The position numbers and the translations under genes were made by a program. Source: Candidatus Krumholzibacteriota bacterium (GTDB taxonomy: Bacteria > Krumholzibacteriota > Krumholzibacteriia > LZORAL124-64-63). From it: a DNA stretch of 36,662 nt. Below, in pieces: positions 6,166 through 35,512 of the stretch (the stretch's first letter is position 1; each line of letters begins with the position of its first letter). Where the stretch lies: NCBI GenBank assembly GCA_039714075.1, contig JBDLKA010000026.1, positions 1 to 36,662 of the forward strand, read 5' to 3'. The notes under the pieces were generated by a model. That model saw only the letters and a list, made by a program, of their open reading frames with translations, searched no databases and was not told the DNA's origin.

Positions 6166-6178
6166 AAAAGGGATGCTC

Positions 6179-6550: not shown

Positions 6551-6560
6551 TTCGGCCCGG

Positions 6561-7556
6561 TCAGTCGCCGACCACCGGAATCGGGATCGAGCAGCCGGGG
6601 CACCGGTTGCCCGCGGCCATCCTGCCGACGCCGCGATAGCCCGACCTTTCAACAACCATGGTTTCGCATTCGGGGCAGACGGTGTCCCGTCCCTCGCTCG
6701 TATGCGCGTTGCCCAGGTAGACGTACTTCAGTTTTTCCGCGGCAAGTTCCCGCGCTTTCAGCAGCGTGGCCAAAGGGGTCGGCGGAGCGTCGAACTTCCA
6801 GGCGGGGTGGTAGGCGGAAAAATGCAGGGGCGTATCGACGTCCAGTTCCGCGACGAAATCCACCACCTCGGCGATCTGGTCCTCCCGGTCGTTGTAGCCC
6901 GGAATAAGCAGGTTCGTAATTTCCAGATGCACCCCCGCGTCCTTGAACTGTCGGATCGACGTCAGGACCGGCGCGAGCCGGGCCTTGCAAATCTTGCGGT
7001 AGAACCGGTCGTCCATGGATTTCAGATCGATGTTCGCCGCATCGATCCAGGGCAGCAATTCGGCCAATGGTTCCGGATTCAGGAAGCCGTTGGTCACCAG
7101 GACGTTCTTCAGCCCCTTTTCCCGCACGATTTCGGCCGTATCCCGGACAAATTCGAACCAGACCAACGGCTCGCTGTAGGTAAAGGCGATGCCCACCGAC
7201 TCCTCGGCCTGGGCCATGGCCACCAGATCGGAGGGCGAAGCCTTCTGGGTCCTGGCCTCACCGTCCTGGCTTATATTCCAGTTTTGACAGAATTGGCAAT
7301 GCAGGTTGCATCCGGGGGCCGCCACCGACAGGATCGACCGGCCGGGATGAAAATGATACAGGGGTTTTTTCTCGATGGGATCGACCGCGGCCGAAACGAT
7401 GCGGCCGTAGTGGAGCGGGACCATGGTCCCGGCATGATTGGCCCGGGTGGCGCAGGGGCCGGTCTGCCCCTCGCGCAGACGGCAGTTTATCGGGCACAAA
7501 TCGCAGGCGACCTGTCCGTTGTCCAACGGGCGCCACCAGGCGGCGGTCTTGGTCAT
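6561..7556 (-). CDS. amrS: AmmeMemoRadiSam system radical SAM enzyme
   Basis: N-terminal CDLCPINC...C, DPIEKKPLYHFHPG, CNLHCQFCQNW (CxxxCxxC), FTYSEP, C-terminal CPEC...CPGC. Confidence 0.9.
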   Translation of the reverse strand: MTKTAAWWRPLDNGQVACDLCPINCRLREGQTGPCATRANHAGTMVPLHYGRIVSAAVDPIEKKPLYHFHPGRSILSVAAPGCNLHCQFCQNWNISQDGEARTQKASPSDLVAMAQAEESVGIAFTYSEPLVWFEFVRDTAEIVREKGLKNVLVTNGFLNPEPLAELLPWIDAANIDLKSMDDRFYRKICKARLAPVLTSIRQFKDAGVHLEITNLLIPGYNDREDQIAEVVDFVAELDVDTPLHFSAYHPAWKFDAPPTPLATLLKARELAAEKLKYVYLGNAHTSEGRDTVCPECETMVVERSGYRGVGRMAAGNRCPGCSIPIPVVGD

Positions 7557-15628: not shown

Positions 15629-16531
15629 TCAATGTTGGTTTCCCCACATCATCTCCCCCGCCGTTACCGCCACCGGCAGGGTGTTGCCCGCCGCGGGCAG
15701 CGGACAGGTGGCGAAGGGCGTAAAGACACAGGGCGGATTGTATGTCCGGTTGAAATCCAGGATCACCGTCCCGTCGGCCGCGGGCGGATCGACGGTCAGG
15801 AAACGGCCCCCCGCATAGGTTGTCTTCCCGTTGGTGGCGTCCCCGAAAACCAGGGACATCCGCTCGCCGGGTGCGCCGGTGGGCGTCAGCCGGAATTCCT
15901 GTTTGTCGATGGTAAAGACCAGAACGCCTGGGCTGGGCGATGCCGTCCGATGCCCAACCACATTGGGCACGTTGATGGTGGCGGGACCCGGCTCGAGGTG
16001 CGCCGTCAGCCGCCAGTGGACATCCACCGGAAAACGCTCGATACCCTGGAATGACTGCAATACTTCCGACTTGCGGTCCTTCACCCGCAGAAACAGCTTT
16101 CCGTCGCGATCGATGACGTAAAAGACCATCGAACCGGTCGCCAGCCTGGTCGGCGGGCCCTCCTTGTCCGTGGCCAGGGTGCAACTCGACAGCCGGCCCT
16201 CGGTCGGGGATTCAAGCACCTCGACTTCCGCGTCCGGATGGGCCGAAAACATGATCTGCTCACTGGTCACCGCGAGCGTGCCGAGCCAGTAGGGCGCACC
16301 CGCGGCCAGGGTGACGTCGGCGTCCGCACTGGCTCCCAGAGAGTTGGCACCTTCGGCCAGGGGATGCAGGCCGACCAGGGTCAGCCACCCCGTGTCGCTG
16401 CGCAGGCGTTCGGTGCGTTCGGCATGCCACTGGTCAATCTCGGCCATGTATTCAGGGCTTGTCTTTTCCCCGCCGCAGCCGGCGATCAGCAAAAACACCC
16501 CGAATATCCCTGCCCATTTCCCCATGGTCAT
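15629..16531 (-). CDS. DUF1684-family lipoprotein
   Basis: Lipobox LIAG-C; GWLTLVGL, FGDATNGKTTYAGGRFL, LDFNRTYNPPCVFTPFATCPLP. ATGA overlap with the kinase stop. Confidence 0.85.
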   Translation of the reverse strand: MTMGKWAGIFGVFLLIAGCGGEKTSPEYMAEIDQWHAERTERLRSDTGWLTLVGLHPLAEGANSLGASADADVTLAAGAPYWLGTLAVTSEQIMFSAHPDAEVEVLESPTEGRLSSCTLATDKEGPPTRLATGSMVFYVIDRDGKLFLRVKDRKSEVLQSFQGIERFPVDVHWRLTAHLEPGPATINVPNVVGHRTASPSPGVLVFTIDKQEFRLTPTGAPGERMSLVFGDATNGKTTYAGGRFLTVDPPAADGTVILDFNRTYNPPCVFTPFATCPLPAAGNTLPVAVTAGEMMWGNQH

Positions 16532-18906
16532 CCTCTTCCTCCGGTTGATCCCGATTTGCCCGGGGATTCCATCTGCGACAGCCGCCATTCCGCCAGCTCG
16601 GATTCGCTCAGGCGGTCCCTCAGATTACCCAGATCTATGGTGTGTCCCATGTCGACGCAGGCAGTAAACATCTCCTTGGCTTCCTCCGCCCGGCCCTTCA
16701 ACAGGTAGACTTCCCCGGCATAGTAGAAACCTTCACATAATTTCTGCCTGTCCCCGGACGGGACCTCCTCCAGCAGCATGGCCGGCGACATTTCTCCCGC
16801 CAGGCAGGCCAGGATGCTTTCCAGCCAGTGATCGTGTTCGATGTTGAGCCGGGCCTCCGCAACGGCGGCTTCCGCCTCCTGATGACGTCCCAGCCCGTGA
16901 AGGACCAGGGCGAGCCGGATGTTGCTGTACGAGGTCCTGGCCAGAAGCAGATAGGCCTTCCGGTAATCCACGACCGCTTCCTCCAGACGTCCCAGGATCC
17001 ACTGGGGGGTTCCCCGATGGTAATAATACCAACCGACAAGGTGGCCCTCGCGCGCGTTTTCAATGGCCTTGGTATAGTCATCCACGGCAGCGGCATAATC
17101 CCCCAGCCAGCGGTGGATCTGGGCGCGTGTTTGATAGCCTTCCAGATAGGCGGGGTTGTTTCCCAGGGCCCGGTCAACTTCCTCCAATGCCTCCCGCGGA
17201 CGGCCCAGACGACACAGCAGGGTGCACCGCAACCCCAACCACTGTTCGGGCCCTCCATCTCCCATTTCCATGAGACGGGAAATCGCCGCCAGACTGATTT
17301 CCAGGTCCCCGGTCAGGGCACTGAACCTCGCCACGTTTTCCAGAGCCAGTTTGTGGTCCGGATCGTGGGTCAGCGCGATATGCGACCAGGCCAGGGCCTG
17401 GTCGTTATCGAGGGTCGTATAGGATCGAAGATACCAGCTGTCGGCCAGGCTGCGGTCCGGGTCTTCATGGGCCCAGGCGCCGAATCCCTCTTCAACGGTG
17501 AGATCCTTGACCACTCCGATCTCCGAACGCAGCGCCCGGTAGATCCATTGGTCGGGCTCCTCCTGAAGCCGCCTGTCCAGCCAGCTCAGCGCCAGACTCC
17601 TTTCCCCGGCCACACACAAAGCCATGGCCTTGATCATGACCGCCTCGAGCAATCCAGGGTACCTGTCCGGAGCATCCAGGGCGTAGTTGATAGCGATCCC
17701 GCTGGGAGGACTGGGAATCATGAACTGGTGCCGCAGGATCAGGGTATCCCTCCGGGCCCGTTCCATGTCGTAGGGCGGCTGGGCAGCCTGCCAGGCCCAG
17801 ATCACACCCAGGACAAGAGCGGCGGCGGCCAACACGCTTGCCAGGCGGTGCCTCAATACGGCCTTGCGCAGGATGTAGAGCCGGGACGGCCGCCGGGCCA
17901 GAATGGGTTCTTTGGCCATGAAACGGCGCAGATCCTCGCCCAGACCCGCCGCGGTGGAATAACGTCGTTCGGGCTCCTTGGCCAGGGCCTTGAGAACGAT
18001 GTTTTCCAGGTCGCCCCGCAAAGAGGAGTCCAGCCGGCTCGGCCGGGCGGGTTCCTCGTCGCAAATGGACGTCACGGTTTCGGGGGTGAAGCTGTGGGCG
18101 TCATGGGGCGGCTTCCCGGTCAGGATCTCGTAAAGGATTACGCCGAGTGAATAAACATCCGAAGGCGCGTCGATATCGGAGGCCTTGCCCATGACCTGCT
18201 CCGGACTCATGTACCGGGGCGTGCCCGCCATCAAACCCGTGCGGGTCATGGTAAGGGCCATTCCCGGATCGGGTTGCGTCAAATGGGCCAGGCCGAAATC
18301 CAGGATCTTGGGATTGCCCTCGTCCGTGACCATGATGTTCGAGGGCTTCAGGTCCCGATGGATCACCCCGCAGTCATGGGCGTACTGGGCGGCCAGGCAG
18401 ATCTTCTGAAACAGGATCAGCCTTTCCCCGCGGGACAGATCGTTGTCACTGAGGAATTCCTGCAGGGACTTGCCCCGGACCAGCTCCATGGCGAAGTAGT
18501 GCAGGCCGTCTTCGGTCCGCCCGGCCTCGTAGATGGTTGCGATGGAAGGGTGATGGAGTCTGGCCAGGGTCTGGGTTTCCCGCACGAAATGCTTCACGTG
18601 CTTCTCGCCCGCAAAACGGCCGCCCCGCAAAACCTTCAAGGCGATGGCGCGGCGGGGCGACTCCTGTTCGGCCTCATAGACCAGGGCCTGGCCGCCCTCC
18701 CCCAGAAGCCCCTTGATGGTGTAGGGCCCGATTTTATCGGGCAGGGGCACTTCCTCGGACAGATCGGCACTGATCCGACGGATATCCTCACGAATTCTGC
18801 CGGCCCGGCGGCGGCATTCCGGGCACTCTTCCAGGTGCCGGTCCAACTCCTGGGCATCCCGGTCGATCCAGCTCCAGAGTTTTGCTTCCGGAAGATCGCA
18901 ACCCAT
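16528..18906 (-). CDS. Hanks-type Ser/Thr kinase with N-terminal zinc-finger anti-sigma (HxxxCxxC) motif, one TM helix and C-terminal TPR repeats
   Basis: HLEECPEC; LGEGGQ, IALKVL, HRDLKPSN, DFG, GTPRYMSPEQ, DVYSLG; TM LASVLAAAALVLGVIWAW; TPR-like helices. Start set at ATG 18906; the ORF is open from 18957. Confidence 0.9.
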   Translation of the reverse strand: MGCDLPEAKLWSWIDRDAQELDRHLEECPECRRRAGRIREDIRRISADLSEEVPLPDKIGPYTIKGLLGEGGQALVYEAEQESPRRAIALKVLRGGRFAGEKHVKHFVRETQTLARLHHPSIATIYEAGRTEDGLHYFAMELVRGKSLQEFLSDNDLSRGERLILFQKICLAAQYAHDCGVIHRDLKPSNIMVTDEGNPKILDFGLAHLTQPDPGMALTMTRTGLMAGTPRYMSPEQVMGKASDIDAPSDVYSLGVILYEILTGKPPHDAHSFTPETVTSICDEEPARPSRLDSSLRGDLENIVLKALAKEPERRYSTAAGLGEDLRRFMAKEPILARRPSRLYILRKAVLRHRLASVLAAAALVLGVIWAWQAAQPPYDMERARRDTLILRHQFMIPSPPSGIAINYALDAPDRYPGLLEAVMIKAMALCVAGERSLALSWLDRRLQEEPDQWIYRALRSEIGVVKDLTVEEGFGAWAHEDPDRSLADSWYLRSYTTLDNDQALAWSHIALTHDPDHKLALENVARFSALTGDLEISLAAISRLMEMGDGGPEQWLGLRCTLLCRLGRPREALEEVDRALGNNPAYLEGYQTRAQIHRWLGDYAAAVDDYTKAIENAREGHLVGWYYYHRGTPQWILGRLEEAVVDYRKAYLLLARTSYSNIRLALVLHGLGRHQEAEAAVAEARLNIEHDHWLESILACLAGEMSPAMLLEEVPSGDRQKLCEGFYYAGEVYLLKGRAEEAKEMFTACVDMGHTIDLGNLRDRLSESELAEWRLSQMESPGKSGSTGGRG

Positions 18907-19066
18907 CGTTTTGCCTTTGGTAGAAGTGCGGGTCATCGCCCGAATCCCAACCCCCATTCTACCTTATTTTGAGCAGGAATGAAAAGGTGGTCCCGATAAA
19001 TTTCCGTCGAATCGGCCCGGCCGATGTTATAGTAGACAGAACCCGGTTCTACGAAAGGGATCGTCC

Positions 19067-19639
19067 ATGCGGGAACCCCAGGGCGCAAACCAGAACCTCG
19101 CCGACCTCACCCCCGACCTGGTGGCCCGTCTCCGTGCGGGAGACGCCGGCGCCGGCAATATGCTCCACGAACTCTACCAACCGCCACTGGTGCGTTATTG
19201 TTTCCGCTTCCTGGCGAGCAAGGACGAAGCCGAGGACGTGGTTCAGGAAGTTTTCCTGCGCGTCCTGAAAAACAAGGCCCAGCCCGAAAATTTCAGGGCC
19301 TGGATCTACAAGATCACCCGCAACCGGTGCCTTGATATGATTCGCCGGCGGGGCCGCCGACGTGACGACCAGGCTCTGCCCACCGCCTCACGCCTGGACG
19401 CCGATTTGACCGGCTGCCTGACCAAACTGGTGCGCCGGGAACAACGGGCCCACCTCAGGCGGGCCCTGGCCGAACTTCCGGAAAACCAACGGGAAGTCCT
19501 GCACCTGCGCTATGCCGAGGATTTGTCCCGGATCGAGATCGCCCTGGTGCTCGACATTTCTGAAAATATCGTAAAATCAAGACTTTACGAAGGCATGGTA
19601 AAACTCCGCGCCCACGACTCCCTGGTTGACCGAAGATAA
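19067..19639 (+). CDS. ECF RNA polymerase sigma factor
   Basis: Region 2 EAEDVVQEVFL, FRAWIYKITRNRCLD; region 4 LAELPENQREVLHLRY...EIA..L..SENIVKSRL. Confidence 0.92.
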   Translation: MREPQGANQNLADLTPDLVARLRAGDAGAGNMLHELYQPPLVRYCFRFLASKDEAEDVVQEVFLRVLKNKAQPENFRAWIYKITRNRCLDMIRRRGRRRDDQALPTASRLDADLTGCLTKLVRREQRAHLRRALAELPENQREVLHLRYAEDLSRIEIALVLDISENIVKSRLYEGMVKLRAHDSLVDRR

Positions 19640-20452: not shown

Positions 20453-20650
20453 TTTCTTGATGACCCTTTCCCAAACGGTTCGCTTTGATACACCGGTTCA
20501 ACCGCTCCACCACCCTACATTTGGCCCGCCGGTCTGTCACCGGGTACCTGACCCACAGCGAAACCGGACTTTGCCGGGAAATTGTGGTACTATACCGATT
20601 GAATCCCGATTGCCTCGTCGCCCATTCCCCTTTTCATTCGGTTGGACAAC

Positions 20651-22597
20651 ATGCTTTCAAGCGCCCGACGCCATTTCTGCTGCGGAATCCTGACCCTCAT
20701 TATCGCCCTGGCGGCCGTTCTGCCACCCGCCGCCGACGCCCAGGTGTCGGCCGCCAAACCCTACTCCCAGGTCGTCGCGGAAGTCATGGGTTTTCTGGTC
20801 TCGGACGTGGGCCGGAACGGCATCCGCACCAATGACGACGATCCCCTGGGGTATCCCGTCCCCCCCTATTTCTACAGCTACGCCATCAACGACGGGAACA
20901 ATCTGGACGGTAACCTGAACGGCTATCCCGGATACCTTTCGGTCAGCTATCCCGCCTACACCGCGGCGGTGGCCATCGACGCGTTTCTGGACTGGCGGCG
21001 CTGGAGCGGCGACGCCGAAGGCCTGGCCCGAGCCCGGCAGTACGCCGACTGGATCCTGGAGCATCGCACCCCCGCCGGCGACCTCTACGGCAACCTGCCC
21101 TACAGCACCCAGACCGACGCCGTCATGGGCGGCGGCTGGGACGGCCCGGCGATCATGACCGACAAGCCCGCCATGTTCGGGCTACGGCTGTTGCGCCTGT
21201 ACGATATCACCGCCGAACCGGCCTACCTGGATGGGGCCCTGGAAATCGCCGCTGTCCTGGCGGCCACCCAGATGACCGGACCGGTGGAAGACCAGGGGCG
21301 CTGGCCCTTCCGCGTGGTGCCCGCCGACGGAACCGTCACCCAGGACTACACCAGCCACCTGACACCGGCGGTGCGTTTTTTCGACGACCTGGCCGCGCGC
21401 ACCGGTGATCCCGCCTACGAGCAGGCGCGAGACGGGGCCTGGGCCTGGCTGCTGGCCAATCCCTGCGAATCCACTTCCGCTTCGTACATGCGGTGGGAAG
21501 CTTTCTACGAAGACCAGACTCCCGCCATGCAGACCGGCAAGGGCGATCACTACTCGGGCCATGAAATGGTCGTTGAACTGACCACCCGGCGACCGACCGG
21601 CTGGGAGGATCTGGCGATCGCGGTTTTCGATTCCCTGTCCGCACGTTTTCTCGTGGAGGATCCCCTCAGCAAGTACGCCCCCTTCATACCGGTGACCCTG
21701 GAGTGGTTCGGCTGGCCCGAGGCCACCTACGCCAGCAGCCTGCAGTACGCCCGCACGGCCCTTCTCCTTCACCAAGCCCTGGAAGGAGACGCGCGCCAGG
21801 ATCCCGCCTGGAAGCAGACCGGCTTGGACATGGCGGCCGTCTGCTCCCACGGACAGAACGACCGGGGTACCGCCGCCGACGGCCGCATGTTCACGACCGT
21901 CTACGATCTGGTCACGTACTTCAACATCGACAGCTGGTACGAGCAGGATTTCAACACCGTCAAATACTTCCTGGAGATCATGGACCTGGAACCCGGCCTG
22001 GCTCCGGGTGACGAGTGCCACATCCTGGCCGCGGACCGGGCCCTGACCAGCGTCGCCTACCCCCAGGGAGCCATACTGGTGGAATACGCGACGGCCGGAA
22101 ATGCCGGCAACGAGCGGATCAGGATGCCCGCCGCCCCGGCCTCCGTGACCGCCGCGGGCGTCTTGCTGCCCGAGCTTCCGTCCCCGCCGGCCGGGTCTTC
22201 CGGCTGGCATTTCGACCCGGTTACCGGAGTGCTGCAAGTTTCCCATTCCACGGGTCCGATCGTCGTCACGTCAGCGGTATCAGCGGTTCCCGGCAATGGT
22301 TTGGCCTCGGAAACGGCCCCACTTCTCCAACTCAGGGCGCTTGGGGCTTCGGGGGCGCATCGCGCGGCCATAGGAGTTGACCTTGCACTGGAGGGCAATC
22401 TGAGCCTGGCGGTGTACGACCTGCAGGGCCGCCTGGTGCGCGAGCTGTTGGGCGGGGAACGGTTGGCGGCGGGGTTCCACCGGGTGGTGTGGGACGGCCG
22501 GGACAGCCGGGGCCTACAGGCTGCCAGCGGCGTCTATCTCGTGCAGGGCCGCGCGGGCCGGGCGGTCGCCCGCACCCGCATTCTGCAGGTGCGCTGA
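20651..22597 (+). CDS. Secreted (alpha/alpha)-barrel glycoside hydrolase/lyase-like protein with C-terminal FlgD-Ig/T9SS-like domain
   Basis: Signal peptide ending ADA-Q; helical repeats such as LLRLYDITAEPAYLDGALEIA; C-terminus AVYDLQGRLVREL...WDGRDSRG...SGVYL. Confidence 0.7.
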   Translation: MLSSARRHFCCGILTLIIALAAVLPPAADAQVSAAKPYSQVVAEVMGFLVSDVGRNGIRTNDDDPLGYPVPPYFYSYAINDGNNLDGNLNGYPGYLSVSYPAYTAAVAIDAFLDWRRWSGDAEGLARARQYADWILEHRTPAGDLYGNLPYSTQTDAVMGGGWDGPAIMTDKPAMFGLRLLRLYDITAEPAYLDGALEIAAVLAATQMTGPVEDQGRWPFRVVPADGTVTQDYTSHLTPAVRFFDDLAARTGDPAYEQARDGAWAWLLANPCESTSASYMRWEAFYEDQTPAMQTGKGDHYSGHEMVVELTTRRPTGWEDLAIAVFDSLSARFLVEDPLSKYAPFIPVTLEWFGWPEATYASSLQYARTALLLHQALEGDARQDPAWKQTGLDMAAVCSHGQNDRGTAADGRMFTTVYDLVTYFNIDSWYEQDFNTVKYFLEIMDLEPGLAPGDECHILAADRALTSVAYPQGAILVEYATAGNAGNERIRMPAAPASVTAAGVLLPELPSPPAGSSGWHFDPVTGVLQVSHSTGPIVVTSAVSAVPGNGLASETAPLLQLRALGASGAHRAAIGVDLALEGNLSLAVYDLQGRLVRELLGGERLAAGFHRVVWDGRDSRGLQAASGVYLVQGRAGRAVARTRILQVR

Positions 22598-24246: not shown

Positions 24247-25500
24247 TTATTTCCCCTTTATCACGACCACCCCGCGGTCTTCGGATTCCGCAGCCCAGAG
24301 CTCGACGGCTTTTTCGAAATCGACCATCGCCTTTTCCACCAGCAGGTTGTGGTTTTTTACCTTGAGGTTGACGGCCCGGCGTTCATCATTGATCGCCCTG
24401 ATCCTGTCCAGTTCCCGTTCATAGGCTTTCTTGCCCAAAAAATAACTGCCCAAGATCAGCGCCACTCCGGATATCAGGAATGTTTCGGCGGGAAACTGTC
24501 CCTCGCCCTCCGAAACCGCCATCCCCAGGATGCCGGGAGCCAGGGGAAAGACGAAAAAGGTCTCGGCCATGGCATTGTATTGCTGCTTTTTTTCATAGGC
24601 CGTTTTTTCATTCATCATGGGGATTACCGCTATCAGTTCTGGTAGGCCCACCATTTCCCGGGCCTCGTGGACCCACTTCTGCGGATCATGAACGTGGTGG
24701 CAATCTTCGCAGCGGTTCACCGGCCGCACCCTCAACTCCTGGATGTGCCGGCTCAGGACTATGGTCCGCGCGGGTTCCCGTTTCTTGTTGAGGTTTTCCC
24801 GGTCGTGGCACGTCATGCACAGCGTCTGGATTCCCACACCGGTAACAACCTGCATGACGCCGGTCACCTTGCCGTCCGTCACATGGTCCGACAAGGCGCT
24901 GTGGCAATCCTCGCAGGCCAGGGTCCGGTGCTCCCCCACCGCATGGAGCGTCAGGATCGGCGAGTGGCAATCCCGGCAGGATTCATTGGCCATATGCCGG
25001 GGTCCCGCTTCCGCCCAGTAGTCGGCGTCGGGATTATCCGCCCCGAACGGCGGTGAAAGGGCTCGCAACTCCTCGGGCGTGGGCGGTTCGGGAGGGGTTT
25101 CCAGAAGGATGAATTCCAGTTCCATCAACTCGCCGGCCGAAACCGCCAAATCATGGCTCAGGGGTTGGAAACCCTCGGCGTTCACCGTCAGGTGATACCG
25201 TCCGGGATCGAGTTCCAGTTCGGCCGGGGTGCTTTCACCGGTTCTCTGGCCGTCGAGCATGATCCGCTGTTCCGATGGATCGGAAGTGACCACCACCCGG
25301 GCCTTGCTGGGGAAATCCTGCGGGCTGTCGTCCGCCGCATCCTGTCCCAGGGCCGGAAGAGGGGATCCCTGAAACAGCAGCAGGCTCCAGGCAGCACAAA
25401 GAACGGCGGCCTTCCACTTCCTGTTTCTCCGGCCGGACCGGAATTCCAGGACTCTGCGACTGCCCCGGGGGGACTTGAAATCGGCTTGCGGGAGAGTCAT
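24247..25500 (-). CDS. PEGA-domain / tetraheme cytochrome c fusion with C-terminal hydrophobic segments
   Basis: PEGA-like VTSDPS..IMLDG..GESTP..L.PGRYHLTV..EGF; CRDCH, CEDCH, CMTCH, CEDCH. Confidence 0.8.
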   Translation of the reverse strand: MTLPQADFKSPRGSRRVLEFRSGRRNRKWKAAVLCAAWSLLLFQGSPLPALGQDAADDSPQDFPSKARVVVTSDPSEQRIMLDGQRTGESTPAELELDPGRYHLTVNAEGFQPLSHDLAVSAGELMELEFILLETPPEPPTPEELRALSPPFGADNPDADYWAEAGPRHMANESCRDCHSPILTLHAVGEHRTLACEDCHSALSDHVTDGKVTGVMQVVTGVGIQTLCMTCHDRENLNKKREPARTIVLSRHIQELRVRPVNRCEDCHHVHDPQKWVHEAREMVGLPELIAVIPMMNEKTAYEKKQQYNAMAETFFVFPLAPGILGMAVSEGEGQFPAETFLISGVALILGSYFLGKKAYERELDRIRAINDERRAVNLKVKNHNLLVEKAMVDFEKAVELWAAESEDRGVVVIKGK

Positions 25501-25504
25501 CGGG

Positions 25505-26131
25505 CTAGGGGTCGGCGATATAGCTGTTCAACAACCGATTCGAAGTGATGATGTAGTAGATGGTTCCCGTCTCCTCCATGTTGTCGTTGTCCGGACCCTG
25601 ATCCAGGTCGAGAGTCGAATTGAATTTCACGGTGGCGAGGATATCGATGGCCCCGGTGGCTTTCGCTTCCAGGAAGGCGTCCCCGGCGATCTTTCCCCCT
25701 TGATCGTAGGCCCAGTAGATGAGCTTGTCGTGGGCCACGGTCGTCGGTTCGCCGAACCGCGCCATCAGGCCCCCGACCATCTCCTGGACCTCGTTCGCAC
25801 CGACGTCCTCCCGCCTTTGGTAGAGGGCCAGGATCAGATGGGTCTTTTCGTCGGCGACGACGACGGCATCACCGGCGGGAAACTTGATGGTGCCGGGATA
25901 GGTGTCGGCTATCAGGTTTCCCCCGGCCGCCGCAACCTGTTCCGCGGTCAGGCGGGCGCCGATCACGAAAGCCCCTTCGCCCAGCTCGAGATCCTTCACC
26001 GCCGCGGCCAATTGTTCAACCGACTCATCCCCCGCGGCGGGCAAACCGTCCCGGGCATCCTTTCCCCAAGCCTCTGCAGGTGGAGAAAAAAGACACAAAA
26101 TACCCCACAGGACGAGGGTCGGTTTCATCAT
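25505..26131 (-). CDS. Exported hypothetical protein within the cytochrome operon
   Basis: Signal peptide MMKPTLVLWGILCLFSPPAEA. Gaps of 19 nt and 4 nt to the flanking genes. No CxxCH. Confidence 0.72.
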   Translation of the reverse strand: MMKPTLVLWGILCLFSPPAEAWGKDARDGLPAAGDESVEQLAAAVKDLELGEGAFVIGARLTAEQVAAAGGNLIADTYPGTIKFPAGDAVVVADEKTHLILALYQRREDVGANEVQEMVGGLMARFGEPTTVAHDKLIYWAYDQGGKIAGDAFLEAKATGAIDILATVKFNSTLDLDQGPDNDNMEETGTIYYIITSNRLLNSYIADP

Positions 26132-26150
26132 TGCCGGATCCACGGCCGGC

Positions 26151-27686
26151 CTACCGGCCACCTTCCTTGTACCACTGGTGTTCGGGTTTGGCCAGGATCC
26201 CGTTGATCGCCTCCTCGAACACGGTCTTTTTTCCCTTCTGGGCAGCCAATCGCCGCAGTTCAGGCAGGAATTTGTGGTAGAAATTCTCGGCGACTTCGTA
26301 CATGCCGTGCCAGTGGGCGTAGTCGGGCGCCATCTTGGAGGCGCCCACACGGGCGGTGCGGCCTTCATGATGCCACAACTCCCACCAGTACCAGCCCAGC
26401 TTGCTGTTGAACTGGGGGCCGGAGATCAGTCCCTCCCGCTGGGCCATTTCGAAAAGCCTCTGGGCGGGCTTGGCGAACTTGTCGTTGTAGGTAATGACCA
26501 GTTCATCGAACTGCTTGTAGAAATTTTCGACGACCTGGACACCGTGGCACTGCACGCAGATGATCCTCATGTCTTCACGCCGCAATTCCCAGCTCTTGAC
26601 TTCGATGACCTCGCCCGTTTCCTCGATCTCGGTCCACTTCCCTCCGACCTCGGCGTACTTCTTGTACTTGCGCTCCTGGCCGACCTGGGGCGGGATGTCG
26701 CCGTGGACATCGGTGATATCGCCGTTGGCGAAAACGACCCGGTTCATCTTCTTGGAAACGGGTGTCCTGAGGTTCCAGGAAATACGGTCGCCCACGTTGT
26801 GCGTCGGGGGGGTAACGGCACCGTCCGCCTTGAGCGTGGATCCCATGTGGCAGGTGGCGCAGGTCGGCGCGGAGTAATAATCCTTGCCCAGCACCCACTT
26901 GCCCGCCTTGAGGATGTTCATGCCGTTCATGCCGCGCTCGCGTATCGCGGTTTGATAGGCGATACCGTGCTTGGACTCGTTAAAGGCTTCCATCTGGGGA
27001 TGGTCCGGGCCCATGTGGCACTTGCCGCAGTTCTCGGGCTGGCGCGAAACGGAGGAACGGAAGGAATGGCGGCCGTGGCAGGCGGTGCAGGAACCCAGGG
27101 TGCCGTCGGGATTCACCCGGCCGATGCCCGCGTTGGGGTAGGTCATGGGATCGAACATGACCGCCTGGTCCTGGTTCAAGAGGGCCTTGCCGCTGTCGTC
27201 GGTCAGGATCTTGACCACCGAACCGTGGCACTGCCAGCAGCCGTTGGCCGAGCCGGCATTCGTCTGCATCGAGGTGACGACCTCGCCCAGCACGTTGTCC
27301 AGCGAGGCCATGATCAGGCCGGCGGTGGCATGATGGGACGTGGACATCTCCTTGGCTTCGTTTTCATGGCAGAAGGCGCAGTCCGCGGGAGACTGGAGGG
27401 TCTTCATCCACGCGCCCTCGTGCAGATAGCCCGCGGGATCGTCCTTCTCGGCGGCATGGCAGTTGTAGCAACCCACCTGTCCGTCCTGGGCGGCGGCGTG
27501 GGGAGAGTTCTTCCACTGCTGGACCAGCGAGTTGTTCTCCTTCAAGTGGCAGTTGATGCACTTGACGTTTTCCTCCTGGATGACGGTGCTGACGACATCC
27601 TTGGAGGCGGTGGTCGTGGCGAAAACCGAACCGGCGACCATCAGAAAGACTCCGGCCGATCCAATTGCCAGCTTCCACTGTTTCAT
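26151..27686 (-). CDS. Octaheme cytochrome c, hydroxylamine oxidoreductase (HAO)-like, reductive type
   Basis: RBS AGGAGGA and Sec signal; 8 CxxCH (CINCH, CYNCH, CAFCH, CWQCH, CTACH, CGKCH, CATCH, CVQCH); GPDHPQ, WHHEGR, PDYAHWHG. Confidence 0.88.
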   Translation of the reverse strand: MKQWKLAIGSAGVFLMVAGSVFATTTASKDVVSTVIQEENVKCINCHLKENNSLVQQWKNSPHAAAQDGQVGCYNCHAAEKDDPAGYLHEGAWMKTLQSPADCAFCHENEAKEMSTSHHATAGLIMASLDNVLGEVVTSMQTNAGSANGCWQCHGSVVKILTDDSGKALLNQDQAVMFDPMTYPNAGIGRVNPDGTLGSCTACHGRHSFRSSVSRQPENCGKCHMGPDHPQMEAFNESKHGIAYQTAIRERGMNGMNILKAGKWVLGKDYYSAPTCATCHMGSTLKADGAVTPPTHNVGDRISWNLRTPVSKKMNRVVFANGDITDVHGDIPPQVGQERKYKKYAEVGGKWTEIEETGEVIEVKSWELRREDMRIICVQCHGVQVVENFYKQFDELVITYNDKFAKPAQRLFEMAQREGLISGPQFNSKLGWYWWELWHHEGRTARVGASKMAPDYAHWHGMYEVAENFYHKFLPELRRLAAQKGKKTVFEEAINGILAKPEHQWYKEGGR

Positions 27687-27715
27687 GCGATTCCTCCTAC
27701 GACTTGTTTCAGGAC

Positions 27716-28918
27716 TCATGGGACGATACCTCGGATTGTAGACGGATGGTCATCCTGCCAGAAAGGAAAAATTTTCCCCAGCAGATAAAGAACGAAGATC
27801 GGGATCACCATGATGACGACCGCCAGCAGGATCCCTTCCCTTTCCAGCCATTCCGGCTGGTAGAAAACCGAACCGCGCCCGCTCTTGGACATCAGCTGGC
27901 CTCCGATCACCACGTTCCAGCGCATGAAGAGCACCTGAAGAAGGACCATCAGGGCGGAAACGGGAGCCAGAACATTGACCAGGGAGTACCTCTTCTTGGC
28001 CAGGTGGAGGATGCCCATCAGGAGAAGGGGAATGACGGACAGGACCAAGACCTGCCAAATCCAGTAGCTGTTGTACAGCGGGCCCCACAACAGGCTGTGC
28101 AGCGTCTCCCAGTGGCTGGTGGCCATGTAACCGTGGGTAAAGACTTCGAGCATCTCGAAGGTGAAATTCAGGACGAAGAAACCGGCCAGGAACTTGACGC
28201 TGGTGCGCATGCAGCCCCGGTCGATTTCGCGGCGGGAAATCTTCATCAGGATGACGTAGGCGATGATGATACCCGCAATTCCCGAAACACAGGCCGACAG
28301 CAGGAAGATGACCGGCATCAACGGCGTGGCCCACAGCGGGTTGGCCTTGACCCCGCCGAAGATGAAACCGACATAGCCGTGCAGCGCGCAGGCCATGGGA
28401 ATGCCGATGACGGCCAGGAACTTGATGATCTTGCGGTCCATCCTCAGGGCCTCTGCGGAGAGGTTGTCGCTGCCCATGGACAAGGCGAGATAGAAGAGGC
28501 GTTTGATGCCCGTGGACGACTGGTGCCGGGCCACCAGGGTCGGCCGGTAGATGAAGAAGATCTCCAGGACCAGGAGCAGGCCGTAGGCCATGTAGAAGTA
28601 GCCGAAGCCGGCCATGGCCGAGGTCGGGTTCGGGGTCAGGAACATGCTCATCGCCCGCCCCGGTTGACCGAGATGCACCAGCAGGGGCACCGTGGCGCAG
28701 GTCAGGAAAGCCAGGGCGAACAGCAGCGAGAATCCCGCCAGGGGTTTCAGGTTCTCCACCCGGAAAACGTGGTACATGGACGAGACGATGAAGGCCCCGG
28801 CCACGATCCCGGTGATATAGGGGTAGAGCACGATCATCAGGCTCCAGTGAACCTGGAGATCGTTGGGAAAGACGTAACCCGCGGCGGTGGCCGCCAGATC
28901 GGCAATCACGGGAATCAT
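27716..28918 (-). CDS. nrfD: NrfD/PsrC-family quinol dehydrogenase membrane subunit
   Basis: WSLMIVLYPYITGIVAG, HLGQPGR, SAM, HGYVGFIFG...PLW, RWNVVIGGQ. ATGA overlap with the Fe-S gene. Confidence 0.88.
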   Translation of the reverse strand: MIPVIADLAATAAGYVFPNDLQVHWSLMIVLYPYITGIVAGAFIVSSMYHVFRVENLKPLAGFSLLFALAFLTCATVPLLVHLGQPGRAMSMFLTPNPTSAMAGFGYFYMAYGLLLVLEIFFIYRPTLVARHQSSTGIKRLFYLALSMGSDNLSAEALRMDRKIIKFLAVIGIPMACALHGYVGFIFGGVKANPLWATPLMPVIFLLSACVSGIAGIIIAYVILMKISRREIDRGCMRTSVKFLAGFFVLNFTFEMLEVFTHGYMATSHWETLHSLLWGPLYNSYWIWQVLVLSVIPLLLMGILHLAKKRYSLVNVLAPVSALMVLLQVLFMRWNVVIGGQLMSKSGRGSVFYQPEWLEREGILLAVVIMVIPIFVLYLLGKIFPFWQDDHPSTIRGIVP

Positions 28919-29721
28919 GTCACTTCCCTTCTCAGGCCGAGGTAGTGCAGCGAAGGCTTGTTGCCCATGTCGGGCTTCAAAACCGAGATGACATGGGGTT
29001 CGTGCAGCAGCCTGTAGACCTCGGATTCCTTGTCGCCCAGATCGCCGAAAATCCTCGCCTGTGACGGACAGGCCTCCACACAGACCGGGAGCATGTCCTG
29101 GCGCACCCTGTGGTAGCACCAGGTGCATTTCTCGGCGGTCTTCTTCACGGGGTTGATGAAGCGAACCGAATAGGGGCAGGCCTGCACGCAATAGGAACAG
29201 CCGACACAACGCTTCTCGTCAATGAGTATGAAACCGTCCTGGGACTGGAACGTCGCGCCCACGGGACAGACCTGAACACAGGAGGGATTGTCGCACATAT
29301 TACACAATTTCGGCACGAAGAAGGTGTCCCGGAGGGGATTGGTTACATCGTCCCTCCCGGCCGGGAATCCATCCAGCCCGCCGTTGGGCGAATCGACGAA
29401 AACGTTGTCCTGGTCGTCGATCAGATAGCGTTCGACCCAGGTCCGGAAATGACCGTCGGGAACCTGGTATTCGTTCTTGTCGGCCATGCAGCAGGCGCCG
29501 CAGCCGATGCAGTTGGAAATGTTGACCACGAAGGCGAAATGTTTTTCGGGGACGGGAAGTTCCGGCTCGTCATCGGCGCCGGCGACCTGCTGGGCGAGCA
29601 GGCGGGCGCCCGCCGGCAGAACCAGAAGCAACGACCCGCCGATGGCGCCGCTCAGCACCTTCCTGATGAAGCCCCGGCGATCGAGGTCGATTTCCCTTTT
29701 GAGCCTGTTCATTTCATCCAT
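28915..29721 (-). CDS. NrfC/DmsB-family 4Fe-4S dicluster protein, Tat-exported
   Basis: DRRGFI twin-arginine motif; CIGCGAC, CNMCDNPSCVQVCP, CVGCSYCVQACP, CTWC...CVEACP. Confidence 0.9.
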   Translation of the reverse strand: MDEMNRLKREIDLDRRGFIRKVLSGAIGGSLLLVLPAGARLLAQQVAGADDEPELPVPEKHFAFVVNISNCIGCGACCMADKNEYQVPDGHFRTWVERYLIDDQDNVFVDSPNGGLDGFPAGRDDVTNPLRDTFFVPKLCNMCDNPSCVQVCPVGATFQSQDGFILIDEKRCVGCSYCVQACPYSVRFINPVKKTAEKCTWCYHRVRQDMLPVCVEACPSQARIFGDLGDKESEVYRLLHEPHVISVLKPDMGNKPSLHYLGLRREVT

Positions 29722-29724
29722 GGC

Positions 29725-30279
29725 TCACGACCTTTTCCGTTCCAGCGGCAGACCCATCATTTCCCGGGCCTCATGCACCCATTTCAACGGGGCATGAACG
29801 TGGTGGCACTGGTCGCAGATATGATGGGTGCGAAACTTTCTCTCCTCCAGGTGCTCCGGCATGGCCACCAGTTTGATGGTCTCGGGGGGCATGGCCTGCA
29901 CGATCTTGTTGTGGCACTTCACGCACAACGGCTTGATATCCCCGCCACTGGCGACCGGCATGGCTCCGATCACCTGGTCGTCCTTCACGTGGTCCGCGTA
30001 GGCGCCGTGGCAAACTTCGCACATGACGGTCTTGTGGACTCCGTCGACGTGGATTTCCTTGATCAGGGGGTGGCAATCGAAGCAGGACTCGTTGGTCCGG
30101 ATCCTGGTTTCCCGGTTCGCCTCATCCTCCACGGCTCCCGGACGGTAATGGCCGTGCTTGCCGAATTCATCCGGCAAGAAAACCTGCCTCAACACGACGC
30201 TTGCGGTCACGATGACCGCCAGGGTCAGGACGATCCTGACCACATGCGCCTTGGGCGATGATTTGTATCCAGGCTGCAA
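29725..30279 (-). CDS. Membrane-anchored tetraheme cytochrome c
   Basis: TTG start after GGAGG; N-terminal TM helix; CFDCH, CEVCH, CVKCH, CDQCH. Confidence 0.87.
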   Translation of the reverse strand: MQPGYKSSPKAHVVRIVLTLAVIVTASVVLRQVFLPDEFGKHGHYRPGAVEDEANRETRIRTNESCFDCHPLIKEIHVDGVHKTVMCEVCHGAYADHVKDDQVIGAMPVASGGDIKPLCVKCHNKIVQAMPPETIKLVAMPEHLEERKFRTHHICDQCHHVHAPLKWVHEAREMMGLPLERKRS

Positions 30280-30381
30280 ATATTCCTCCCAACAGCACGG
30301 CTTTCATTCCGGGACTTTCCCGTGGAAAACCGTACCCTTTGAGGCCTATATCATCCTAGCCCCCGGGTAGGTGTTCCATGG

Positions 30382-30410
30382 ATTATGGTATCCGGAATGC
30401 CTTCAGGCAA
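30382..30410 (-). promoter_or_regulatory. Putative sigma70 promoter of the cytochrome operon
   Basis: TTGCCT-N17-CATAAT on the minus strand, about 100 nt before the TTG start. Confidence 0.5.
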
Positions 30411-30478
30411 GCGGTGCTTTTACTGCTTATGAGAACCATTTTCGATAGGCTGAAGAGGGACGGAAATCGTGGGAATGG

Positions 30479-30509
30479 AAAACCCCGCTACCACCCGGCA
30501 GCGGGGTTT
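30479..30509 (-). terminator. Intrinsic terminator after the GH13 gene
   Basis: Minus strand AAACCCCGCTGCC-GGGT-GGTAGCGGGGTTTT. Confidence 0.7.
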
Positions 30510-30535
30510 AAACCATCAAATTTCAGGCTGATTCT

Positions 30536-32684: not shown

Positions 32685-35453
32685 TCATTTCACGAGGGTC
32701 ATACGCCTATTCTCAGAATACTCACCAGCTTCCAATCGATAGAAAAACACACCTGACGCAACCTGTTTGCCGTCATCGTCACGTCCGCTCCAGACGACCT
32801 CGTGCGGTCCTTCCCCGAGGTCCTCGTCCACTAGGGTCCGCACGAGTCTGCCGCTCACGTCATAGACCGCCAGGCGGGTCCTGCCCGCCGTAGGCAGTTC
32901 GAAGGCGATGGTCGTTCGGGGGTTGAACGGGTTCGGCTTGTTCTGGGCCAGGAACCCGACGGCCGCAGGCGAGTCTTCCGTCACGGGAGTCCCCACCGGT
33001 ACGAAGATGCTGTAGGTCCCACGGCCGTGGGTGCCCACAGCCACGAAGCCGTCGGCGTGGCGCACCGCCACGTCGTCCACCACGACGTTGCCGATGAGGC
33101 CGGGCGCTTCCAGCTGCCAGTAGGTGTTCGCGCCGGCCATGTAAAAGGTGGAGTAAAGGCCCGTGCTGGTGGCCGCGAAGTAGATCTCCTTGCCCTGGAA
33201 GTCCAGGATCGCCACGTCCCGCACCGAGGGACCGTACAGACCGACCAGGTTGCCCTCCTGGCTGGTCCAGGTGGCTCCACCGTCCTCGGTGTAGAAAATG
33301 CTGTCCACGTTGTAGTTGGAAACGGCCAGCATCACCTTCTGGTCGTCCCCGGGATGGACGGAGATCGACGTCACGAAGGCGCCGGAAACGAAATCCGGAC
33401 CCATGTTCAGCGTCTGGGGCGCCGATCCAACGGGGGCCGTGTGGGCCTGATCGAGGCGGAAGACCGATCCCACTGCAGTCCCGAAGTAGAGCACACGGTT
33501 GCCTGTCCGGGACATGCCCAGTGCCGAGATGTTCTCACCACTCGGTTGTGTGGTCACCTGGTCCCAGTTGATCGCCGTCGGAGAGCCGTTGTTGTCGGGA
33601 ATCCCCGTGAAGTCGTTGTTGCGCCACAGACCGCCTCCGGAAGCCTGGTAGACGACATGGTTGTCCACGGGGTCCATGAGGAAAGGATTGATGAACAGGT
33701 AGTCGGTGACCCCTGCGGGATCCAGGCGGGACCAGGCAAACCACTGGCCCGTGGTATTGTCCACCGTCCGGCGGTAGATGCGTCCTTCCTGGTAGGAGTA
33801 CAGATAGTTCCCGCTGGGGCTGTCGGCGTCCACCACGGCGCTGTGGCCGCCGTCTCCACCGACGTGATTGACCCAGTCGGTTTCCCCGTCTTCCCACATG
33901 GTGAACCAGCTGCCGTTGTCCTGGGTACCGCCCACGATCACCTGGTTGCCGGGCAGATCCTCGTCGATGGCGATGCGGTAGAACTGGCTGGTGTCATAGC
34001 CGTTGTTGAGGCTGAGCCATTCCTCCACGGCGGTGGCGCTGTTGATGTTCAGGATCTTGTGCACGCCGCCGTCCGTCGCGGAATAGGCCATGGCGGACGA
34101 CCCCGGCTGGAAGATGAGGTCATGCTGGTCTTCGTGGTGACCGACGGAGATCCGTCCTCCGATCAGGTCCGTGAAGCCGTCGGTGGCGAAACCGTCCAGG
34201 CTGCGCCACAGGAGGCGGCACCCCATGTAGACCACGTCCGGGCTCACGGGATTGACCGCCAGGGACATGTTGTAGTTGCCCTGGGTGTCGGGCACCCAGT
34301 CCACTGCCCCGGACAGGCCGGGCAGAAGCGCGATCTGCGCGGAGCGGTCCTCCCAGGTTCCGGATCCCGGGGGCTCGCTGTGGGTGTACTTGTAGAGGCC
34401 CACGAGGCCGCTGCCGTTTGTATTCTCGACCAGGGCATAGAGGATGTTCTCGTCACTGGGCGCCAGGACCAGCACCACGCGTTCGAACGAGGTCAGGGTC
34501 GGAGGCGTGATGTCGGTCCAGTTGACGCCGTCGGTCGAGCGATAGAACCCCGACTCGTGGCCTCCCGTACTGAGGGACGCATAGACGACGCCTGTGGAGG
34601 TGACCACCAATTCGGTGAACATCGACCAATCGGCCGGGTTTGCTCCGGCGCCCAGGGTCACCGACCAGCTGTTGCCACCGTTGACCGAGCGAAGGATGTA
34701 GCCGAAGATGGCCGCGTAGACCTCGTCCTCGGTCGGATTGCTCGGGTCGACCCGTAGGCGATGGACGTACTGCCAGAAGGAATTGAAGGTCGAGGGCCGC
34801 CCCCCCGCCGTCACGGGCAGCTGGGTCCAGCTCTGGCCCCCGTCGGTCGATTTGAAAACACCGTCACCCCGGTAGGTGGCTGCATAGACACCCGCCGACT
34901 GCCCCCGAAACTCCCCCGTGCCATAGTACCACACGTTCTCGTGCCCGGGACGGGTATCCTGGGCGACGCTGACCACCGAGTGCAGCTGCGTACTGCCCGT
35001 GGTCAGGGTCCATGAGGCGCCGTCGTCGGTCGAGCGCCACATGCCGCCACTGACGCCCCCGGCCAGCAGGGTCTGCCAGGTCGGGTCGCTCACGTCGAAG
35101 GCCAGGGCCCGGGTGCGGCCGCCGATGTTTTTCGGTCCGCGCGGCACCCAGCCGATCATCTTGTCGGCCTTGGCAGGGTCCTCGGACTGGATTCTCTCCT
35201 GTAGCGCGCTACCCCGGCGGCTGGGCAATTGGCTCGCGAACTCCCGTTCCCGCCTGTGGATGTCGGCCGGGATCTGGTCGGTCACCGGGTCGCGCAGCCG
35301 CATGAACTCGAACTCCCAGCGGCGGCCGCGGCCGGTGTCTCCGGAAGCGTCATTTTCCGGCACCTGGGGAGGAGCGCCGCTGTCGCGCAGCAGCGGAACA
35401 AGGATGGCGCAGGCCAGCAGAATCGACATTACGTTCACGATTCGCTTCAACAT
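32685..35453 (-). CDS. Secreted BNR/Asp-box beta-propeller protein (VPS10/GH74-like) with C-terminal FlgD-Ig/T9SS-like domain
   Basis: GPKNIGGRTRA; repeated S/TxDGGxxW boxes; GGTQDNG, GGDGG, GTHGRG; C-terminus QNKPNPFNP...YDVSGRLVRTL...WSGRDDDG..VASGVFFYRL. RBS GGAGG. Confidence 0.82.
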   Translation of the reverse strand: MLKRIVNVMSILLACAILVPLLRDSGAPPQVPENDASGDTGRGRRWEFEFMRLRDPVTDQIPADIHRREREFASQLPSRRGSALQERIQSEDPAKADKMIGWVPRGPKNIGGRTRALAFDVSDPTWQTLLAGGVSGGMWRSTDDGASWTLTTGSTQLHSVVSVAQDTRPGHENVWYYGTGEFRGQSAGVYAATYRGDGVFKSTDGGQSWTQLPVTAGGRPSTFNSFWQYVHRLRVDPSNPTEDEVYAAIFGYILRSVNGGNSWSVTLGAGANPADWSMFTELVVTSTGVVYASLSTGGHESGFYRSTDGVNWTDITPPTLTSFERVVLVLAPSDENILYALVENTNGSGLVGLYKYTHSEPPGSGTWEDRSAQIALLPGLSGAVDWVPDTQGNYNMSLAVNPVSPDVVYMGCRLLWRSLDGFATDGFTDLIGGRISVGHHEDQHDLIFQPGSSAMAYSATDGGVHKILNINSATAVEEWLSLNNGYDTSQFYRIAIDEDLPGNQVIVGGTQDNGSWFTMWEDGETDWVNHVGGDGGHSAVVDADSPSGNYLYSYQEGRIYRRTVDNTTGQWFAWSRLDPAGVTDYLFINPFLMDPVDNHVVYQASGGGLWRNNDFTGIPDNNGSPTAINWDQVTTQPSGENISALGMSRTGNRVLYFGTAVGSVFRLDQAHTAPVGSAPQTLNMGPDFVSGAFVTSISVHPGDDQKVMLAVSNYNVDSIFYTEDGGATWTSQEGNLVGLYGPSVRDVAILDFQGKEIYFAATSTGLYSTFYMAGANTYWQLEAPGLIGNVVVDDVAVRHADGFVAVGTHGRGTYSIFVPVGTPVTEDSPAAVGFLAQNKPNPFNPRTTIAFELPTAGRTRLAVYDVSGRLVRTLVDEDLGEGPHEVVWSGRDDDGKQVASGVFFYRLEAGEYSENRRMTLVK

Positions 35454-35512
35454 GGTTTTCCCTCCACATGGAAACCGCACGGGGCCGACCTACGCGCCCC
35501 GGTTTTCTGCCG

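Follow-up and report, generated by a model that had tools for sequence, protein, structure and literature searches.

A six-gene operon pairing an octaheme HAO/IhOCC-type cytochrome c with an NrfC/NrfD-type module in a Krumholzibacteriota contig

Gene content of the operon

The 36,662-nucleotide stretch of contig JBDLKA010000026.1 (GenBank assembly GCA_039714075.1, Candidatus Krumholzibacteriota bacterium; positions 1 to 36,662 of the forward strand), hereafter the window, carries six minus-strand genes that run head to tail from position 30279 to 24247. They encode two tetraheme cytochromes, a Tat-exported Fe-S protein, an NrfD-family membrane protein, an octaheme cytochrome c that resembles HAO and IhOCC, and an exported protein. 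An initial annotation of the letters had proposed an operon of these protein types at these coordinates, and the open reading frames (ORFs), Pfam matches and motif counts agree with it. The genes are listed in the order of their presumed transcription.

29725..30279, minus strand: gene 1, membrane-anchored tetraheme cytochrome c, 184 aa; four CxxCH motifs, N-terminal transmembrane helix at residues 12-30
28915..29721, minus strand: gene 2, Tat-exported Fe-S protein, 268 aa; RRGFI Tat motif at residue 15, 16 Cys, Fer4_11 E 3.4e-25
27716..28918, minus strand: gene 3, NrfD-family integral membrane protein, 400 aa from the ATG; Pfam NrfD E 1.3e-39
26151..27719, minus strand: gene 4, octaheme HAO/IhOCC-type cytochrome c, 522 aa; eight CxxCH, no CxxCK, PF13447 E 2.2e-19
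25505..26131, minus strand: gene 5, exported alpha/beta protein, 208 aa from the MMK start (~185 aa exported); signal peptide
24247..25500, minus strand: gene 6, PEGA-tetraheme membrane protein, 417 aa; signal peptide, PEGA E 2.4e-12, four CxxCH motifs

The junctions from gene 1 to gene 6 measure 3 nt, a 4-nt overlap, a second 4-nt overlap, 19 nt and 4 nt. The packing is as tight as first described, but the upper value of 29 nt given for the gaps is reached only if the octaheme starts at Met12, the residue at which its relatives start; otherwise the largest gap is 19 nt. Across the six proteins, 16 CxxCH and no CxxCK motifs are counted, and no NrfA model matches any of them, which bears out the exclusion of NrfA and ONR. 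The absence of a molybdopterin subunit was also noted correctly, as no such gene lies in the operon or adjoins it.

Gene 1 gives weak Pfam matches to Cytochrome c3/c7 and additionally a weak match to the N-terminal hemes of TvNiR (E 8.7e-5). By analogy with Nrf, it is presumed to be an electron relay in the position of NrfB. The 16 cysteines of gene 2 would fit four [4Fe-4S] clusters, as in the NrfC/PsrB/TtrB/DsrO class. The protein matches the NCBIfam models TtrB (E 7e-64), DsrO (1.4e-46) and NrfC (9.5e-45), all under their curated cut-offs, and its best solved relative is PsrB (2vpw_B, E 6.1e-46). The ORF of gene 3 stays open to 29209, where the extra stretch overlaps the Fe-S gene. About 8-9 hydrophobic helices and no cofactor motifs are found in its product, which matches NCBIfam DsrP and NrfD far under the cut-off and has no PDB match at E<=0.01. 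It is presumed to provide the quinol site of the complex.

No Pfam or NCBIfam family matches the product of gene 5. In an alignment of 38 orthologues, ten columns are invariant, including K83, H134, Y139, W140 and K169, and the AlphaFold2 (AF2) model takes on a confident alpha/beta fold (predicted local distance difference test score, pLDDT, 87.7; predicted TM-score, pTM, 0.78). A Foldseek comparison of this model with the PDB returns 0 matches at E<=0.001, with best TM-scores of 0.2-0.33, and the ESM Atlas returns unnamed clusters only. In a profile search of 1.84 billion representatives, 150 matches are obtained at E<=0.001, 102 of them at E<=1e-30; the strong ones are single-domain proteins of ~200 aa or shorter fragments. 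Gene 5 is predicted to encode a cassette-specific subunit or maturation factor.

Gene 6 is laid out, according to hydropathy and conservation, as a PEGA domain (residues 69-129), a tetraheme domain (175-268) and a pair of hydrophobic segments (~314-330, ~340-356), with a charged tail at the C-terminus. Its heme domain is paralogous to gene 1, with which it shares 46% identity over 117 aa (E 1e-35). Among 5.8 billion proteins, just 30 relatives besides gene 6 itself are found at E<=1e-95, and six of them apparently share contigs with the closest octaheme homologues (74-88% identity). Gene 6 is not found in the 45 related loci described below, and the ORF that follows gene 5 lacks CxxCH in all 41 loci that have gene 5. 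Because the relatives of gene 6 pair with the closest octaheme homologues, the six-gene form appears to be confined to the window's own clade. A search of the open full-text literature for works that join a PEGA domain with cytochrome c gave a single, apparently unrelated one in two versions.

The octaheme cytochrome and its cross-link loop

The octaheme is presumed to be the catalytic subunit. Its eight CxxCH motifs and its homology to solved members place it in the HAO family. Among solved structures, IhOCC of Ignicoccus hospitalis (4qo5) is the closest relative, with an E value of 1.5e-40 that improves to 4.7e-55 when a 20-sequence family profile is used. Further PDB matches are kustc0458 (6h5l, E 2.4e-15), HAO of Nitrosomonas europaea (1fgj/4fas, ~2e-13) and the anammox enzymes HOX and HDH. 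MccA (4rkm), which has an unusual heme motif and a copper site, and OTR (1sp3) are not among the PDB matches at E<=1, of which there are 13 by single sequence and 17 by profile.

Both motifs singled out in the initial annotation are present, GPDHPQ at residues 237-242 and PDYAHWHG at residues 465-472. All eight heme motifs and GPDHPQ are invariant in 20 of 20 aligned family members, and within PDYxHWHG only residue 468 varies; D239, H240, P465, D466, Y467, H469, W470, H471 and G472 are thus fixed in the whole set. HMMER aligns D239/H240 with D267/H268 of N. europaea HAO in both chains, 1fgj and 4fas, so that the Asp-His pair is retained. This pair (GxDH, after the sixth heme motif) has a catalytic role in HAO.

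Three comparators were obtained from a plasmid search. The first, encoded on the Ruegeria pomeroyi megaplasmid with haoB downstream, is a true HaoA, and the other two are HaoBA-type HaoA proteins, whose genes have a NapC/NirT gene upstream. The family profile aligns with a HaoBA-type HaoA over its full length (hhalign probability 100, 41% identity), while the window octaheme is only 33% identical to this type by tblastn. The HaoBA-type pairs (NapC/NirT, then octaheme) lie on plasmids of Desulfobaculum bizertense and Desulfosarcina ovata (loci L082, 2482-4479, and L083, 2416-4434), and the D. ovata pair adjoins norR and a nitric-oxide reductase gene.

A tyrosine cross-link to the heme distinguishes oxidative HAO in the initial annotation, which had argued for a reductive enzyme from a Trp at the corresponding position. 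In the alignment of Ruegeria HaoA to 4fas, a Tyr falls on chain index 467 within '...hvnpggwtYtegwgp'. We take Y467 of 4fas (chain index) to be the residue that cross-links to the catalytic heme of the neighboring subunit. Oxidative P460 enzymes are further recognized by a band at 460-475 nm and by a covalent trimer. The window stretch that corresponds to this loop reads R457-V-G-A-S-K-M-A-P465-D-Y467-A-H469-W470-H-G472. The profile-profile alignment of the octaheme family with true HaoA (R. pomeroyi) is confident only to about residue 437, and for the C-terminus, alignments forced to be global or run at low mact contradict one another. A 78-sequence profile anchors ELW, Gly459 and Pro465 on the end of the HAO helix with a confidence of 0.1-0.2 and leaves the loop unaligned, and hhalign puts Val476 on the cross-link Tyr, again at 0.1-0.2. 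Six restricted loop alignments with low scores (6.5-16) place residue 469 on the cross-link Tyr in four cases, Trp470 in one and Val476 in one; a query Tyr reaches this position in none of the six, all of which are of low confidence. The 78 sequences span three clades. All of them have Trp470, and all but two, which carry Phe or Ile instead, have Tyr467; position 469 is occupied by His or Gln, or by Trp in the HaoBA type.

The PDY motif is additionally present in all 24 sampled HaoBA-type sequences. According to Ferousi et al. (PMC8042395, in the passages available), the critical Tyr is missing from four epsilon-Hao enzymes, which reduce nitrite and hydroxylamine. If the HaoBA type belongs to the same family as these Tyr-less enzymes, the PDY tyrosine would not be the cross-link residue. 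The two are likened by gene arrangement, and a homologue search from a HaoBA-type protein gives matches that are all at least 67% identical, none of them named Campylobacterota. The published account of the orange Beggiatoaceae octaheme offers no residues for comparison. The balance favors a window octaheme without a cross-link, and at the cross-link position these alignments make His469 more likely than Trp470. The earlier Tyr/Trp argument is weakened accordingly: the lack of a Tyr at that position is probable, but His469 is the better candidate than Trp470, a near-invariant Tyr467 lies close by and the alignment is of low confidence.

Conservation in relatives and comparison with known systems

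A tblastn scan with one genome per species detects at least 585 related stretches at E<=1e-3. Eighty loci were taken from it, of which 45 encode an octaheme at least 49% identical to that of the window and are termed related, and 35 are distant. The related loci belong to Desulfobulbia, Desulfobacterales and Campylobacterota (Arcobacteraceae, Sulfurospirillaceae, Sulfurimonadaceae). The order of genes 1-4 is shared by 42 of the 45, which is the outcome of the conservation survey that the initial annotation had called for. Two of the remaining three loci are contig ends. One locus (L024) has the octaheme alone. In 41 loci the octaheme gene is followed by gene 5, and 40 have the full set of five. 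In a neighbor-joining tree without support values, the cassette octahemes form one clade with the HaoBA type outside. The closest octaheme is 67% identical to that of the window in species-representative genomes and 88% identical among metagenome-derived proteins, and the window's lineage seems to be absent from the species-representative collection.

Within 7 kb of the cassette, six of the 45 related loci encode NapA, and a seventh encodes NapH alone (Nap in total 7/45). Hcp lies directly upstream in three, and YgbA, titled 'nitrous oxide-stimulated promoter family protein' in NCBIfam, is found upstream in four. Taken together, 14 of the 45 loci have Nap, Hcp or YgbA beside the cassette. In the distant octaheme clade, NapA is adjacent in 8 of 35 loci. 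The proposed nitrogen-oxide role thus finds a basis in the neighborhoods of relatives but not in the window, where nap, nir and nrf are missing.

Several of these neighborhoods have features of their own. The hybrid-cluster hydroxylamine reductase Hcp is encoded at 2474-4147 in L017, 2342-4000 in L021 and 2375-4036 in L059, all Desulfobacterales (two titled Desulfobacterium sp., one Desulfobacteraceae). A DASS-family anion symporter of 623 aa lies on the opposite strand just past the cassette in five Desulfobacula-type loci (L020, L022, L025, L028, L029). A Verrucomicrobiota/Cloacimonadota group of octahemes, which makes up 6 of the 35 distant loci (L060, L062, L069, L071, L073, L076; ~4500-7000), has its own adjoining Fe-S and NrfD genes. 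NapA is adjacent in five of these six, downstream in four and upstream in L071. This group suggests an independent pairing of octaheme and Fe-S/NrfD modules.

The initial annotation regarded the system as undescribed, a claim that does not survive comparison with the literature. In the available text of Slobodkina et al. 2017 (PMC5276818), the same four-gene locus is described beside napMADGH in Thermosulfurimonas dismutans and Dissulfuribacter thermophilus, nitrate-ammonifying isolates without nrfA, and nitrite reduction is proposed for it. Allioux et al. 2022 (PMC9676032) place the locus in two more strains, F29 and T. marina, in the part of that paper that was available. As far as these descriptions go, the locus (TDIS_0606-0609 type) consists of a HaoA-homologous multiheme protein, NrfD, a periplasmic 4Fe-4S protein and a transmembrane cytochrome c, and it carries the same hypothesis of nrfA-independent nitrite reduction. 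The window octaheme shares 55% identity with P0094, a protein of Thermosulfurimonas sp. Gene 5, provided that the same gene is meant, figures in the published description only as a 'periplasmic protein of unknown function'. The TDIS-type locus, compared here by its published description, adjoins napMADGH, whereas the window has no nap, and gene 6 is absent outside the window's clade. The core of the operon has accordingly been noticed and likewise interpreted in print, and the window adds a clade-specific sixth gene and a setting without nap.

NrfABCD uses the same kinds of subunit: an NrfD quinol subunit, an NrfC-type Tat Fe-S subunit, a small multiheme relay and a periplasmic multiheme reductase. 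The initial subunit logic, in which an HAO-like octaheme takes NrfA's place beside an NrfC/NrfD module and a small cytochrome c, holds. The two systems differ in that NrfA is a pentaheme with CxxCK, whereas the window enzyme is an octaheme with CxxCH at every heme, and in that NrfB has five hemes, whereas the window relay has four and a transmembrane anchor. The equivalog cut-offs for NrfC (TIGR03149, 152.7 bits against 377.6) and NrfD (TIGR03148, 52.7 bits against 347.6) are not reached, and assignment is made at family level by Fer4_11 and Pfam NrfD.

Epsilon-Hao/HaoBA is said to have been described by Haase et al. in 2017 as a reductive HAO-family octaheme. The HaoBA type shares the LWHHEGRRAR...PDYxxWHG block and GPDHPQ with the window octaheme. 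It differs in its partner, a NapC/NrfH-type tetraheme quinol dehydrogenase instead of an NrfC/NrfD module with an anchored tetraheme, and forms a separate clade in the tree mentioned above, which lacks support values. No NapC/NirT-type (HaoB) gene is found in the operon, gene 1 has no NrfH match, and the weak TIGR03153 match is that of the octaheme itself. IhOCC shares the HAO-like fold without P460 and differs by a Val at the position of window His240 and a Trp at that of Tyr467. It is listed as an octaheme nitrite reductase without P460 in the consulted portion of PMC9250108. MccACD/SirACD likewise places an octaheme cytochrome c on an NrfC/NrfD-type quinol module, according to the available text of PMC8076601, but MccA falls into another octaheme clade in the available text of PMC9250108.

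Three further candidates were set aside. RS02855 of Desulfurivibrio dismutans, the octaheme most upregulated during the dissimilatory reduction of nitrate to ammonium, has 786 aa and lies in a cytochrome-b locus, which makes it a different system. In D. thermophilus, an NrfD protein is upregulated on sulfite (PMC13490349), but the genes around it differ, and it is not tied to the cassette. The 'novel NrfD complex' of KSB1/Planctomycetota (PMC10732223) is ACIII-like and is not the system of the window.

The operon is flanked by a GT87 glycosyltransferase gene and an alpha-amylase-family gene, and no families of nitrate, nitrite or sulfur respiration are found among the 26 other window ORFs scanned. 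Upstream of gene 1 lies one further feature.

30280..30535, minus strand: upstream intergenic region, presumed promoter region, 256 nt, sequence read directly

A GGGAGG ribosome-binding site is located 6 nt ahead of the TTG start of gene 1, and a single sigma-70-like match is found at 30410-30382. Promoter-like matches in this region (2 found, 1.7 expected) do not exceed chance, and neither do terminator-like sites (5 found, 7.2 expected). A GC-rich hairpin followed by TTTTCC (~30478-30507, minus strand), which is absent from the list of the consensus scan, lies just past the stop of the amylase-family gene and looks like a terminator that would separate the operon from this gene. Elsewhere in the window, a Ser/Thr protein kinase with TPR repeats (16528-18957, minus strand) adjoins an ECF-type sigma factor (19067-19639, plus strand), with no evident link to the operon. 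Two large secreted proteins (20642-22597, plus strand, 651 aa; 32685-35480, minus strand, 931 aa) carry a C-terminal FlgD Ig-like domain (E 1.2e-7 and 1.5e-8), which may serve as a C-terminal sorting tag and hints at a lineage that is uncultivated and not proteobacterial.

Proposed function and competing explanations

By analogy with known NrfD-module reductases, the operon is interpreted as encoding a periplasm-facing, membrane-bound menaquinol:nitrogen-oxide oxidoreductase that reduces nitrite, hydroxylamine or nitric oxide (NO), with a probability of roughly 55%. What we observe is the gene content, motifs, homology, conserved gene order and neighbors in relatives; which way the electrons flow, what is reduced, what is formed and whether the proteins make up one complex is what we infer. 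The reaction would start with the oxidation of menaquinol at the NrfD-family subunit. Electrons would then travel via the Tat-exported NrfC/PsrB-like subunit and its four [4Fe-4S] clusters to the membrane-anchored tetraheme and from there to the octaheme HAO/IhOCC-type cytochrome. Its fourth heme, with Asp239-His240 above it, would reduce nitrite and possibly also hydroxylamine and NO, and the most likely product would be ammonium. The product of gene 5 may act as a dedicated periplasmic accessory or structural subunit. The product of gene 6, a probable lineage-specific duplicate of the small cytochrome, might offer a second membrane-anchored entry or exit for electrons.

The nitrogen-oxide reductase is preferred because the composition and order of the genes copy the logic of known NrfD-module reductases, and because the core order is kept in 42/45 related loci. 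It is also favored by the Nap, Hcp or YgbA neighbors in 14/45 of these loci and NapA in 8/35 of the distant clade, and by the nrfA-less nitrate ammonifiers that carry the same locus beside nap. The closest solved relative, IhOCC, is listed as a nitrite reductase without P460, and the HaoBA type forms the neighboring outer clade, with epsilon-Hao reported to be reductive and without the critical Tyr. In the window octaheme itself, no Tyr is set on the cross-link position, and Tyr467 is replaced by Phe or Ile in 2/78 sequences.

Several points weigh against this interpretation. No nap, nir, nrf or hcp gene is found in the 36.7-kb window (26 other ORFs scanned), and 31 of the 45 related loci have no nitrogen-oxide neighbor within 7 kb. 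A search of the open full-text literature, with subscription journals and bioRxiv supplements outside its range, found no biochemical, genetic, expression or structural study of the cassette. The available text of Slobodkina et al. 2017 (PMC5276818) itself offers tetrathionate or polysulfide metabolism as the alternative to nitrite reduction, and kustc0458 makes NO, not ammonium, from nitrite (PMC8042395, in the passages available). The GPDHP motif is common to kustc0458 (6h5l) and the window octaheme. The AF2 model of the octaheme, built from 20 sequences, has a pLDDT of 55.2 with a heme core below 50 and is too poor for residues to be superposed on HAO, and the cross-link loop aligns to true HAO with very low confidence. 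Finally, a near-invariant Tyr467 lies two residues ahead of His469, the residue aligned to the cross-link position, so that a cross-link is possible.

The same complex could detoxify rather than respire, either by removing NO or hydroxylamine or by making NO from nitrite as kustc0458 does. Hcp directly upstream in 3/45 loci and YgbA upstream in 4/45 would suit such a role, as would the GPDHP motif shared with an enzyme that takes nitrite only to NO (PMC8042395, available passages) and the lack of a nitrate reductase near the window operon. A dedicated quinol-oxidizing NrfCD module in a five-gene operon would, however, be a heavy investment for detoxification, and Nap beside the cassette in 7/45 loci and in the nrfA-less ammonifiers fits respiration. 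We consider detoxification unlikely. A more remote explanation is a reductase for sulfite, tetrathionate or polysulfide, analogous to MccACD/SirACD. The octaheme is of HAO/IhOCC type and leaves MccA 4rkm and OTR 1sp3 unmatched at E<=1, which speaks against it, even though most carriers are sulfur-cycling Desulfobacterota and Campylobacterota and the Fe-S subunit scores best against TtrB, DsrO and PsrB. This alternative is the one named by Slobodkina et al. (PMC5276818), and MccACD is a recognized octaheme-NrfD complex (PMC8076601), both in the portions of text available. No sulfur-metabolism gene lies beside the cassette among the flank matches listed, nor did one turn up in a second scan, whose targets were only Nap, an NrfH-like protein, Hcp, YgbA, the DASS symporter and a sigma-54 regulator.

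The pathway may also run in reverse. The octaheme would then oxidize a periplasmic substrate or accept electrons from periplasmic dehydrogenases, and NrfCD would reduce menaquinone, as in Nhc/Qrc. NrfD modules are described as working both ways in the available text of PMC8076601, and the near-invariant Tyr467 sits in the loop that carries the HAO cross-link Tyr, the alignment of which is unreliable. Still, no alignment sets a Tyr on the cross-link position, and Tyr467 is Phe or Ile in 2/78 sequences. The PDY motif is present in 24/24 HaoBA-type sequences, whose gene arrangement resembles that of epsilon-Hao, a possible member of the same family that is reported to be Tyr-less. Retention of the catalytic Asp-His pair speaks against a mere electron carrier, and the Nap neighbors imply an oxidant rather than a donor. 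This direction has a slender chance of being the physiological one. A bolder extension of the nitrogen-oxide reductase reading, which we regard as improbable, is that the cassette represents a distinct and widespread class of nitrogen-oxide reductases that conserve energy through their NrfD module, include a dedicated subunit whose fold has no solved relative and are invisible to nrfA/onr surveys, and in which, in the window's lineage, the PEGA-tetraheme wires in a second partner, for example a cell-envelope or extracellular route, and renders the system bidirectional or multi-input.

Should the operon encode a menaquinol-dependent nitrogen-oxide reductase, it would add a further member to the NrfD-module complexes, of which a 2021 review names 14, with the word hydroxylamine absent from its available text (PMC8076601). 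The conserved gene 5 protein, with a confident fold and no solved relative, and the clade-specific PEGA-tetraheme raise concrete new questions about this family. Many Desulfobacterota, Campylobacterota and uncultivated lineages could then retain nitrogen without nrfA, and such carriers would escape surveys that look for nrfA or onr.

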